Assembly (NCBI GenBank): GCA_037968415.1
Contig: JBBKVM010000014.1
Span: 11,954-75,953, forward strand
Reading direction: 5' to 3'
Source: Bacteroidia bacterium
GTDB lineage: Bacteria > Bacteroidota > Bacteroidia > AKYH767-A > JBBKVM01
Length of the DNA stretch: 64,000 nucleotides
Position numbers and translations under genes: made by a program. A model generated the notes under the pieces. The model did not search any database, was not told where the DNA came from, and saw only the letters and a list, made by a program, of their open reading frames with translations. Below, piece by piece: positions 14,448 to 16,970 of this stretch (the stretch's first letter is position 1; each line of letters begins with the position of its first letter).

Positions 14448-15386
14448 TTACCACTTTTTCTTTTCTGCAGGGTCTTTACGCTTTAGGGTGAACACACGCG
14501 AAATATTAAATCCAAAATGGATGTCTCCATTGGTGATGTCACCGGTTGTTTCGGTGATAAACATCTTTTCAATCATGGCACGCGAGTTACTCACATGCAA
14601 TTGGAAAACGTGTCCTCCGGTTTCGATATCGATACCAAGGGATGCCGAATTGAAAACTTCTTTGGTCACCACTTGATCGGGCAGGAGGTAAAAATACTCA
14701 CCATTGATGGTGATGCTCTTTGTAATCTTTTGTCTAAAACCAGCCCCCATTGCATAGATGTCGTTTTTGTCGAGCGTGGTGGGCACCAGATTGTGGTGAA
14801 CGTATGTAGGAGTAAGTTGTAGCGATAAGCCATCATTTATTTTGCGTGCTAGCAATAGCTGATGCGTATAAGACAAACGTGAAGAGAAAAAGTTTTCGCG
14901 CTCGGGTTCGGCCCAACGAAGAGAATTAAGCGCCACGCTGGTAAAATATACCAGACTTACAGGCATTTTTCTGCCACCAGTGCTCTGTCTAAGCAGTTTG
15001 TATTTGCCAAAACCGTCAAATGTTTTTTCGAATGTACTTCGGCCTACGCCCACTGTAAGTCTGTCTAACACGCCATATTCAAATCCCAAGCGCATAGTGG
15101 CCTGGTCGAGACCAAAAAATTCGTAGGGCCCAGCGTTGAGCCTGCCAAATCTGTGGCCAATTAAAAATTGCAATACACCAGCAGCTGGTAACTCTATGGA
15201 GTGGCCGGTAACAATGCGGGTGGTTTTAAAAGTTGCAGTGGTGTAATTAATTTCCGTACTGTCTTCTGTGGCATCCTGCAGCATATTCATCAAATCGTCC
15301 TGCGCCTGTGTTAATTGGGGAATGATACTCAGTGCTCCGATCAAACACACCAATGAAATCCATTTTGCAAGTATTCTTTTATTCAT
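14448..15386 (-). CDS. Secreted/outer-membrane hypothetical protein (DUF5777-like, recalled from memory)
   Basis: Signal peptide and beta-rich sequence. Immediately downstream of YceI on the same strand. Confidence 0.5.
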   Translation of the reverse strand: MNKRILAKWISLVCLIGALSIIPQLTQAQDDLMNMLQDATEDSTEINYTTATFKTTRIVTGHSIELPAAGVLQFLIGHRFGRLNAGPYEFFGLDQATMRLGFEYGVLDRLTVGVGRSTFEKTFDGFGKYKLLRQSTGGRKMPVSLVYFTSVALNSLRWAEPERENFFSSRLSYTHQLLLARKINDGLSLQLTPTYVHHNLVPTTLDKNDIYAMGAGFRQKITKSITINGEYFYLLPDQVVTKEVFNSASLGIDIETGGHVFQLHVSNSRAMIEKMFITETTGDITNGDIHFGFNISRVFTLKRKDPAEKKKW

Positions 15387-15408: not shown

Positions 15409-15972
15409 TTATTTATTGATGAGTTCATATTTCATCACTACCGAAACTTCCACTTGCCTTGCAATATTGTCGCGTACGATGCGAGGCACCGTGATCTGAT
15501 AATCCTGCACTACTACCGGGAATGAAGCTGTTGCGCTCACTTGCCCACCAGCCACTGTGATGGTGGCTTTTACTATTTGTTGGTGTATCACTCCATGTAT
15601 GGTCAGATCGCCTAGCACGGTTGCATCATATTTGCCATCTTTTAGGAAATTGATGTCTTGCAGATTGGTAATCCTGCCTGTAAATGAAGCGGTGGGATAC
15701 TTATCCGACTCCATGTATTTTTCATTGAAGTGCTCCTGCATTGCAGCCCGTTCAAAATAAAAACTTTTTATCGTGGCTATCACACGCATCTCTCCTGTTT
15801 TTTTATCAATGATGCTTGCCACCTGACGATTGGTTGCTTCAATATTTTCGAGTGGAGCCTCCGATACAAATTTGATGGTGCCTGTGCGAGTGAATAACTT
15901 ATCCTGCGCCATGGCTTGTAAGCACATGCCGGTGAGAAAAAGCGTAAAAAATATTTTCAGATTTATGCCCAT
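15409..15972 (-). CDS. YceI-family periplasmic polyisoprenoid-binding protein
   Basis: Signal peptide, about 187 aa, lipocalin-like YceI pattern (GTIKFVSEAPLENIEATN…TITVAG). Confidence 0.85.
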   Translation of the reverse strand: MGINLKIFFTLFLTGMCLQAMAQDKLFTRTGTIKFVSEAPLENIEATNRQVASIIDKKTGEMRVIATIKSFYFERAAMQEHFNEKYMESDKYPTASFTGRITNLQDINFLKDGKYDATVLGDLTIHGVIHQQIVKATITVAGGQVSATASFPVVVQDYQITVPRIVRDNIARQVEVSVVMKYELINK

Positions 15973-15973
15973 T

Positions 15974-16384
15974 TTAGTTTTCCGGGGCTCCTTTTGCTAC
16001 CCATGTACTGATTAGTTGAAGCTCGCACGCACTCAATGGCGATTGGCTTGGGGGTGGCATGTTTTTTAAATCAATGACCCTGTTTTTAAAAGTGCCATCA
16101 TCTATTTTGGCTTTTACCTGTGCATAAGTGGTAAGCAGGGGGTTGGCCGCGCCATTGCCATGACACCCTGATATTGCGCAATTTGTATCTATTAGAAGTT
16201 TAATTTTTCCATTATATACATTGGCCGTAGTGTCGCAAGCTGGACCTGGTCCATACAATTCTTCTTCGTTATCATAATAGCATCCTTGCAGCATTGCAGT
16301 AACCAAAAACACAAAGAATACTTGTCCGAAGCCTACGAGAAATTGATGATGAGAAGAAATATTTTTGAAAGTACGGATTGTCAT
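15974..16384 (-). CDS. Lipoprotein with planctomycete-type cytochrome-c-like (PSCyt1-like) signature and a CAISGCHG motif
   Basis: Lipobox AMLQGC. C-terminus has …CAISGCHG…KNMPPPSQSPLS…ISTWVAKGA, matching the MPPP / W..GA hallmark of PSCyt1 domains. Start chosen at MTIRTF rather than the longer ORF. Confidence 0.55.
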   Translation of the reverse strand: MTIRTFKNISSHHQFLVGFGQVFFVFLVTAMLQGCYYDNEEELYGPGPACDTTANVYNGKIKLLIDTNCAISGCHGNGAANPLLTTYAQVKAKIDDGTFKNRVIDLKNMPPPSQSPLSACELQLISTWVAKGAPEN

Positions 16385-16538
16385 AAAGTGAATTTCAGAT
16401 TTAAAAAGGTGTCTTCTCAAATTTAATCAATTTATCTGTGTTGCTACATGTATTTGGAATTAACATTCCAGCCAAAGTGTTGACAGCGCACATCATTTTG
16501 TGAAATATTGGCATAAATTTACAGGCTAATCTATTGCT

Positions 16539-16970
16539 ATGAAAAAGACGTTTGTGATTCTGTTTGTGCTGGTCATTGTAATTGCATCAGTGGCCGGATA
16601 TTTTATGTACACCCGTTCGCACGATAATCTTGCAAGTGCCAAGCCTGATTTTGAGTTGAGCGCTGGCGAATTGCTGGAGGAGTTTGCAACTAACCAGGAT
16701 GCGGCCAACGCACGCTATCTCAATAAAGTGATTGAGGTGCGCGGAGTGGTGGATGATGTGATGGAGGATCAAAGTATGATCACGGTCCGCATTGTGGAAC
16801 CCGGTGATTACAATGGAGTAAGCGCCCAGTTTATAGAGCAGAACAAAGCGGATGCAGTAATTGCGCCTAATGGAAGCGATATAAAAGTGAGAGGGCTGTG
16901 CAGTGGCTATACGGGCGATGACATGATGCCCGGTGATGTAGTTCTGACAAATGCAGTAATTATTCCCTGA
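16539..16970 (+). CDS. Membrane-anchored OB-fold protein (tRNA_anti-like family)
   Basis: N-terminal TM helix followed by an OB-fold pattern (…AANARYLNKVIEVRGVVDDV…). Confidence 0.55.
   Translation: MKKTFVILFVLVIVIASVAGYFMYTRSHDNLASAKPDFELSAGELLEEFATNQDAANARYLNKVIEVRGVVDDVMEDQSMITVRIVEPGDYNGVSAQFIEQNKADAVIAPNGSDIKVRGLCSGYTGDDMMPGDVVLTNAVIIP

Follow-up and report, generated by a model that had tools for sequence, protein, structure and literature searches.

A conserved C-X4-C-H motif of predicted haem c attachment in a small lipoprotein of a large Bacteroidota family

The window analysed here, a stretch of 64,000 nucleotides from contig JBBKVM010000014.1 of a Bacteroidia bacterium (assembly GCA_037968415.1), carries on its reverse strand a gene, called here cyt1, that encodes a lipoprotein of 136 residues in which the two cysteines of a putative haem c attachment motif are separated by four residues (CX4CH). 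We consider it likely that the cyt1 product is a real c-type monohaem cytochrome, lipid-anchored outside the cytoplasm and serving as a small electron carrier of the envelope. This reading draws on the motif itself and its conservation, on its homology to CXXCH in cytochrome c domains, on similarity at the level of the fold and on the gene cassette to which cyt1 belongs. The features of the gene that are used below, numbered on the window, are the following.

15974..16384, (-): cyt1, coding sequence of the predicted monohaem CX4CH lipoprotein, stop codon included (product matching exactly database protein P0001, which is known from a single NCBI contig of 81 kb; family alignments).
16160..16180, (-): CX4CH motif of predicted haem c attachment, C69-A-I-S-G-C74-H75, with the putative proximal histidine ligand (codons, alignments, hhalign and spacer census).
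16055..16060, (-): M109-P110 of the MPP loop, presumed distal (sixth) haem ligand (conservation in 639 domains; aligns with the MP of CXXCH domains).
16235..16237, (-): C50, presumed disulfide partner of C120 (cysteine co-occurrence).
16025..16027, (-): C120 in the C-terminal helix, presumed disulfide partner of C50 (cysteine co-occurrence).
16280..16384, (-): signal peptide with lipobox L-Q-G-C35, C35 presumably being lipidated and the first residue after cleavage (sequence).
16253..16282, (-): C35-YYDNEEELY, acidic N-terminal motif of the mature protein, near-invariant in the alignments.

The open reading frame (ORF) of cyt1 is intact, with an ATG at 16384, 136 codons and a stop codon at 15974-15976. 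Direct reading of the codons places C69 at 16178-16180, A-I-S-G at 16166-16177, C74 at 16163-16165 and H75 at 16160-16162, followed by G76. The C-A-I-S-G-C-H-G string, with four residues between the cysteines, that had been noticed from the letters of this DNA alone (called here the sequence-only reading) is borne out, and the C-terminal string KNMPPPSQSPLSACELQLISTWVAKGAPEN, which had been likened to that of planctomycete cytochromes, is present in the cyt1 product. A first search retrieved 22 homologues sharing 35-51% identity, 21 of them with CX4CH and one, the most distant (P0022), with CVMCH. The residues C35, C50, C69, C74, H75, C120 and W128 are invariant in these 22 homologues and M109-P110 is nearly so; likewise, C1, C16, C35, C40, H41, C86 and W94 (mature-protein numbering) are invariant in an alignment of 120 sequences, mean identity being about 46% among the 22 and the 120 homologues. 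Among 639 non-redundant domains aligned to the hidden Markov model (HMM) of the family, C69, C74 and H75 are each conserved at 99%, W128 at 98%, P110 at 94% and M109 at 93%.

The family is very large and almost without names. With a profile of the 22 homologues (A1; 21 CX4CH sequences and one CXXCH sequence), a search of 1.84 billion cluster representatives retrieved 10109 proteins at E<=1e-3, of which 132 reach E<=1e-30. A second, indexed search yielded 2476 clusters at E<=1e-8, none of them with a precomputed Pfam domain, and all are named 'hypothetical protein' save P0246, which has CAITGCH and a UniRef name that begins 'Cytochrome c domain-co...' (presumably 'domain-containing protein').

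The length of the spacer was then counted in 654 domains, taken from 171 best-matching proteins and 86 genomic loci. Two residues (X2) separate the cysteines in 265 domains, X3 is found in 10, X4 in 344, X5 in 20 (for example CATSSGCH), X6 in 4 and X8 in 7 (CTNPGxGLNCH), and 4 domains have no C-Xn-CH at all. The recurrence of CX4CH in Bacteroidota homologues, proposed as a check by the sequence-only reading, is thus massive (344/654). The four residues of the X4 insert follow the consensus A-x-(S/P)-G, the commonest motifs being CAISGCH (42 domains), CAIPGCH (37) and CAMSGCH (18). When the motif columns were masked and the nearest relative of each domain was sought in another protein, CX4CH domains paired with CX4CH domains in 303 of 334 cases (91%) and CXXCH domains with CXXCH domains in 228 of 260. 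Because masked nearest neighbours share the spacer type, the spacer state is, on these alignments, old, stable and mostly clade-specific, with occasional switches. The same clustering of CX4CH domains with one another leads us to reject a recent, degenerate origin of CX4CH. Both cysteines, the histidine and the methionine are kept whatever the length of the loop, as purifying selection on a haem c site would predict. Spacer variation at this one homologous site can be followed in the proteins P0023-P0171 and in the loci L007-L086 (for example L043:5506-6237, L039:5473-6255 and L018:5148-5942).

Regarding the relationship with canonical cytochrome c domains, the 150 best representatives consist of one to eight tandem domains, the count of CXXCH plus CX4CH motifs tracks the counts of domains and of Met-Pro pairs, and both motifs occur within one polypeptide, P0024 having four CX4CH and one CXXCH and P0025 six CXXCH and one CX4CH. 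Alignments built separately from 202 CX4CH and 197 CXXCH domains matched each other in hhalign with 99.8% probability (E 2.3e-28, 89 columns), a test that is not fully independent since both sets were gathered with the same profile. In the resulting register, C--..CH stands opposite C....CH with a two-residue gap, MPP falls on MPP and the C-terminal helix L..C...I..WI..GA is in frame. In a profile search of the sequences of the PDB, the CA--CH of the haem domain of hydrazine synthase alpha and that of PccH, a monohaem cytochrome c, were placed opposite CAISGCH (E about 1); a phmmer search of the same sequences with the cyt1 product gave noise only. The CYYDNEEELY N-terminus is also found together with a plain CXXCH, in P0167 (CAGCH), and 6 of the 84 single-domain ORFs of cyt1 type in the genomic loci have a plain CXXCH. 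Taken together, these profile comparisons demonstrate the homology of the CX4CH segment to the CXXCH of cytochrome c domains and uphold the earlier view that CAISGCH occupies the CXXCH position. Independently of the profile shared by the two domain sets, the homology is supported by the marginal but consistent PDB alignments, by the orthologues with a plain CXXCH, and by the Pfam scores of CXXCH relatives and of the in-silico deletions described next. The two observations that would have spoken against that view, a region unrelated to the CXXCH segment or homologues lacking the cysteines and the histidine, were not encountered.

Comparison with the curated families explains much of the lack of annotation. 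The best Pfam match of the cyt1 product, to Cytochrome_CBB3, reached 17.5-18.5 bits for a cut-off of 27. Deletion in silico of two residues, changing CAISGCH to CAGCH or CSGCH, raised this score from 18.5 to 26.2 or 25.2 bits and also yielded matches to Cytochrom_C, PccH and Haem_bd; a natural CXXCH relative, P0150, passes the family cut-offs (27.8 and 22.4 bits). The insertion thus lowers the score by about 8 bits, and this explains much of the failure of curated models to recognise CX4CH proteins. Relatives containing CXXCH exceed the Pfam cut-offs for PSCyt1, Cytochrome_CBB3, Cytochrom_C and PccH, and P0026, in which every motif is CX4CH, gave no match in the same Pfam check. The PSCyt1 model (PF07635, cut-off 22 bits) did not match the cyt1 product at E<=10 and matched 5 of the 22 homologues below threshold (best E 0.013), and the dihaem proteins that adjoin cyt1 orthologues in other genomes pass it at 38-47 bits. 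PSCyt1 is typically the N-terminal domain of large PSCyt1-PSCyt2-PSD proteins, unlike the cyt1 product, which is a stand-alone lipoprotein. The description of the protein as PSCyt1-like is therefore approximate: it holds insofar as CXXCH relatives pass PSCyt1, and it fails for the cyt1 product itself in both model match and architecture. The cyt1 product is best placed, from its sequence, within the cytochrome c clan, in a branch that has no model of its own and whose nearest families are Cytochrome_CBB3, PSCyt1 and PccH. It has the Cys-Xn-Cys-His after an N-terminal helix, the putative distal Met, the predicted all-alpha fold and the export signal of a cytochrome c, and lacks a curated score above cut-off.

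An AlphaFold2 (AF2) model computed with the 22-sequence alignment (mean predicted local distance difference test, pLDDT, 76; predicted template-modelling score, pTM, 0.56) has helices at residues 57-68, 87-96, 98-105 and 119-130, that is, an all-alpha arrangement as in cytochrome c. A second AF2 model, of the mature domain with 120 sequences, brought no gain (pLDDT 71 vs 76) and had the same top matches. A Foldseek search of the PDB found nothing; the fold matches obtained are monohaem and dihaem His/Met cytochromes, and the second-best structural match is FoxE. As to the two remaining cysteines, C50 and C120 are both present in 356 of the 639 domains, C120 alone in 6, C50 alone in 130 and neither in 147. 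Because C120 almost never occurs without C50, a disulfide joining the N-terminal segment to the C-terminal helix is probable. A comparable stabilising disulfide is present in FoxE (PMC10654088). The family typically has four cysteines per domain, so that proteins of one, two, three and four domains have 5, 9, 13 and 17 cysteines, that of the lipid anchor included; the dihaem proteins have additional cysteines beyond the C-terminal helix.

The N-terminus of the cyt1 product, MTIRTFKNISSHHQFLVGFGQVFFVFLVTAMLQG directly followed by C35, is laid out like a lipoprotein signal peptide, with an n-region, a hydrophobic stretch and a lipobox (LQG before C35), as read from the sequence. The signal peptide ends in VTAMLQG, Cys35 is invariant among the 22 homologues and position -1 is G, S or A. 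These characters support the assignment of the cyt1 product as a bacterial lipoprotein and putative substrate of signal peptidase II, and an export signal with a lipobox would locate it where haem attachment occurs. The first ten residues of the mature protein, CYYDNEEELY, are near-invariant across orders of Bacteroidota and conserved far above the rest of the protein. Known lipoprotein export signals of Bacteroidetes are degenerate and acidic at about +3 to +5, for example K-(D/E)2, SDDDD and SDDFE (PMC5080379); CYYDNEEELY is similarly acidic but far more strongly conserved. Speculatively, it may be an element for surface export, for sorting or for docking to a partner.

The mechanism that we propose runs as follows. 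After export by Sec, the protein would be acylated at Cys35, haem would be attached covalently to Cys69 and Cys74 of the expanded C-X4-C-H loop, and the iron would be held by His75 as proximal and Met109 as distal ligand. The Cys50-Cys120 disulfide would tie the N-terminal segment to the C-terminal helix. The two extra residues (consensus A-x-S/P-G) are stable and clade-typical in this loop, an insertion and not a sign of decay of the site.

CX4CH is listed as an accepted, less common haem c motif (PMC11492766) and occurs twice in the tetrahaem cytochrome c3 (PMC10454114). The cyt1 product and cytochrome c3 (class III) have the same C-X4-C-H spacing and belong to non-homologous families. The Desulfovibrio vulgaris c3 motif CGTAGCH has a glycine before its second cysteine, as does CAISGCH. 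Cytochrome c3 is a bis-His protein with a compact multihaem fold, whereas the cyt1 family has one haem motif per class-I-like domain of about 90 residues and a predicted Met distal ligand; a conserved Met-Pro takes the place of a second His, and the family is not of the cytochrome c3 type. The shared order of a helix, Cys-Xn-Cys-His, MPP loop and C-terminal helix with Trp and Gly-Ala relates the cyt1 family to Cytochrome_CBB3 (PF13442) and PSCyt1, from which it differs by the two-residue insertion and by being a stand-alone lipoprotein of 100 residues; its consensus, I..PI....C...CH / MPP / L..C....I..WI..GA, is the pattern spotted in the sequence-only reading. PccH, a periplasmic monohaem cytochrome c of Geobacter sulfurreducens (PDB 4RLR, PF22297), has a canonical CXXCH and 18% identity, is soluble and not a lipoprotein, and differs in genomic context and phylum; the cyt1 product stays under the Pfam cut-off for PccH even after the in-silico deletion. 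FoxE, the dihaem cytochrome of Fe(II) oxidation of Rhodobacter ferrooxidans SW2 (PDB 5MAB), has CXXCH and about 20% identity, is soluble in the periplasm and is encoded in the foxEYZ operon with a pyrroloquinoline quinone (PQQ) protein.

The genes next to cyt1 in the window, with the number of loci in which their counterparts occur among 57 cyt1 loci with full flanks, are the following.

15409..15972, (-): YceI-family periplasmic protein (Pfam YceI, E 1.4e-13); adjoins in 55/57 loci.
14448..15386, (-): DUF5777 outer-membrane beta-barrel protein (Pfam, E 8.9e-96), last gene of the operon; 57/57 loci.
16539..16970, (+): OB-fold protein (PF12869, tRNA_anti-like) with an N-terminal membrane anchor (Pfam, E 1.1e-16); 52/57 loci.

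The YceI gene starts 1 nt past the cyt1 stop, which places both genes in the same operon, and 22 nt separate it from the DUF5777 gene. In most loci (48/57) a dihaem paralogue, cyt2, completes the cassette, the commonest orders being cyt2-cyt1-OB-YceI-DUF5777 (26 loci) and OB-cyt2-cyt1-YceI-DUF5777 (15 loci). The OB gene, upstream of cyt1, is divergent in the window and on the same strand as the cytochrome genes in all 52 loci that have it (52/52); its orientation here points to a local rearrangement, which may also have removed the dihaem gene. The cyt2 product is a lipoprotein whose first domain is usually CX4CH and whose second is CXXCH or CX5CH; its mature start differs from CYYDNEEELY, with a conserved C-[VEQK]-H-[ED]-P. 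Every product of the cassette carries an export signal, so the module is extracytoplasmic. When each GTDB species was represented by one genome and scanned, a CYYDNEE-bearing relative was encoded in 501 species genomes. The best 80 of these 501 bear the titles of Bacteroidota lineages in 79 cases (Flavobacteriales, Cryomorphaceae, Crocinitomicaceae, Cytophagales, Cyclobacteriaceae, Chitinophagales and Saprospiraceae) and include the isolates Splendidivirga corallicola BMA10 and Cryomorpha ignava QSSC 1-22; the exception is a metagenome-assembled genome (L085) titled Hyphobacterium sp., the gene order of which is as in Cytophagales loci. Among the PDB sequences, DUF5777 had no match, and the matches of the OB protein and YceI, to 3f1z (E 0.016) and 5ixg (E 0.008) respectively, were weak.

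Within this cassette, the cyt1 product would carry single electrons while tethered to the membrane, with the dihaem lipoprotein as its partner in loci that have one, and would work with the YceI protein and the DUF5777 barrel. As to the direction and purpose of electron flow, the module may connect the membrane quinone pool or the periplasm to the outer membrane. Members of the YceI family with solved structures bind polyisoprenoid lipids. The MtrAB, PioAB and Cyc2 conduits likewise have genes for exported cytochromes co-transcribed with that of an outer-membrane barrel. No sequence relationship between them and the cassette was found, and one or two haems are too few to span a barrel as MtrA does; with linkage of cyt1 and the barrel gene in 57/57 loci, the likeness to porin-cytochrome conduits is one of functional analogy. 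A bolder proposal, which we regard as rather unlikely, is that the cassette (often near LytS/LytTR genes) is an undescribed and widespread electron conduit across the Bacteroidota envelope, in which the cytochromes would dock to the barrel via CYYDNEEELY or be exposed at the surface and YceI would carry an isoprenoid quinone. Should it hold, the range of CXnCH motifs (n = 2 to 8) would imply a System II haem synthase of unusually relaxed specificity in Bacteroidota.

Several points weigh against the assignment of the cyt1 product as a cytochrome c. On the biochemical side, haem attachment by CX4CH in a His/Met class-I-like fold is a prediction. Every match of the protein to Pfam and NCBIfam is sub-threshold, and the CX4CH loop (residues 70-73) has a pLDDT below 50 in the AF2 model, as is to be expected of a haem pocket modelled in its apo form. 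No haem lyase (WWD-motif protein) was found in the window or in the flanks of 86 loci, so that a dedicated synthase, if one exists, would be unlinked to the cassette; a System II haem synthase is expected in Bacteroidota. The partner gene cyt2, sought in the window, is absent from it though most loci have it. Finally, DUF5777 is unmentioned in the literature searched and the function of the cassette has no literature or experimental support; the literature found on PSCyt1 consists of genome surveys, and a search for YceI with cytochrome c and Flavobacteria returned nothing relevant.

The sequence-only reading had left the choice between an atypical haem c site and a domain turned into a haem-free scaffold. 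Conservation and homology favour the atypical site, and the scaffold, in which C69-C74 and C50-C120 would be structural disulfides of a structural or docking lipoprotein for the DUF5777 barrel, appears very unlikely. Such a role would accord with an insertion that breaks CXXCH and brings the scores under the Pfam cut-offs, with four cysteines per domain, with an invariant N-terminal motif resembling a docking element and with a loop modelled at low confidence. A disulfide, however, would need neither the adjacent His (99%) nor a Met-Pro some 34 residues downstream (93-94%), and the same positions are kept across spacers from X2 to X8. Moreover, CX4CH and CXXCH domains interchange within orthologues and tandem arrays, and CX4CH is a proven haem site in cytochrome c3.

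Still less likely is a different cofactor or chemistry at this site, be it haem bound through one thioether only, copper or another metal in a Cys2-His-Met site, or redox activity of a C-X4-C dithiol. Copper, too, can be liganded by Cys, His and Met, a gene for a cupredoxin with a type IX secretion system (T9SS) tag adjoins the cassette in marine Flavobacteriales loci, and the variable spacer implies a loop geometry that is not tightly fixed. These points are outweighed by a fold and a profile homology that are those of cytochrome c and not of cupredoxin or thioredoxin, and by the equal conservation of the two cysteines, no homologue having the loss of a single Cys as its usual state. A chance motif in a spurious or decaying ORF, for which nothing speaks beyond the 'hypothetical protein' naming everywhere, is refuted by conservation in 2476 cluster representatives at E<=1e-8, by relatives in 501 species genomes and by an intact ORF ending 1 nt before the YceI start in conserved synteny.

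The reading of the cyt1 product as a c-type cytochrome has consequences for the way such proteins are counted. The CX4CH motif itself is already known. In the literature searched, CX4CH appears undescribed as the only attachment motif of a class-I-like His/Met domain, and so do its predominance in a very large Bacteroidota family, where spacers at one homologous site run from X2 to X8, and the conserved cassette that includes YceI and DUF5777. Counts of haem c sites usually rely on a search for CXXCH, and a family with thousands of members uses CX4CH at about half of its sites (344/654). The cytochrome inventories of Flavobacteriales, Cytophagales, Chitinophagales and Saprospiraceae are likely undercounted, because CX4CH proteins miss the cut-offs of Pfam and NCBIfam and carry the name 'hypothetical protein'. 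The X2 to X8 spacers at one putative His/Met site also constitute a natural test series for System II attachment and for redox tuning by loop length, and the tight linkage of cyt1 with the genes of YceI and of an uncharacterised barrel suggests that the Bacteroidota envelope has a redox module, so far unstudied, of which cultured carriers exist.

Some further observations concern the relatives and the surroundings of the cassette. P0025, a protein of 749 residues and seven domains, terminates in Por_Secre_tail, a sorting domain of type IX secretion, which suggests that Bacteroidota have multihaem cytochromes that reach the cell surface by secretion or are attached there. The second domain of one dihaem protein (L004:5313-6017) matches the NCBIfam Leptospira LIC11213 lipoprotein family below its cut-off (E 3.6e-13), and this uncharacterised spirochaete family looks like a related small cytochrome c domain. 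In L004 (1064-5176), L005 (429-4475) and many of the loci L008-L077, the region about 1-5 kb upstream of the cassette encodes a further YceI-like protein, a histidine kinase of LytS type and a LytTR response regulator; the kinase is roughly 900 residues long with beta-propeller (Reg_prop) repeats. In the marine Flavobacteriales loci L001-L003 (4755-5582), the gene immediately upstream of the OB gene encodes a cupredoxin-domain protein with a T9SS tail, another extracytoplasmic redox protein. Neither this cupredoxin nor the LytS-type kinase nor the LytTR regulator is present in the window, where all three were sought.

It should also be noted that a mechanical list of ORFs sets the start of cyt1 further out, at a TTG at 16420. 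The ATG at 16384 is preferred and is taken as the start, because in the alignment of 22 the homologues begin in the region of the ATG. A sigma-70 promoter scan gave 4 sites where 6.1 are expected, a model that is uninformative for Bacteroidota. The -7 promoter consensus of Bacteroidetes is TAnnTTTG, and the upstream region contains a match to it.

16418..16425, (-): candidate Bacteroidetes-type -7 promoter box TAAATTTG, 34 nt 5' of the ATG (consensus match only).

The TTG at 16420 sits within this box (16425..16418), which is possibly a Bacteroidetes -7 element of cyt1.

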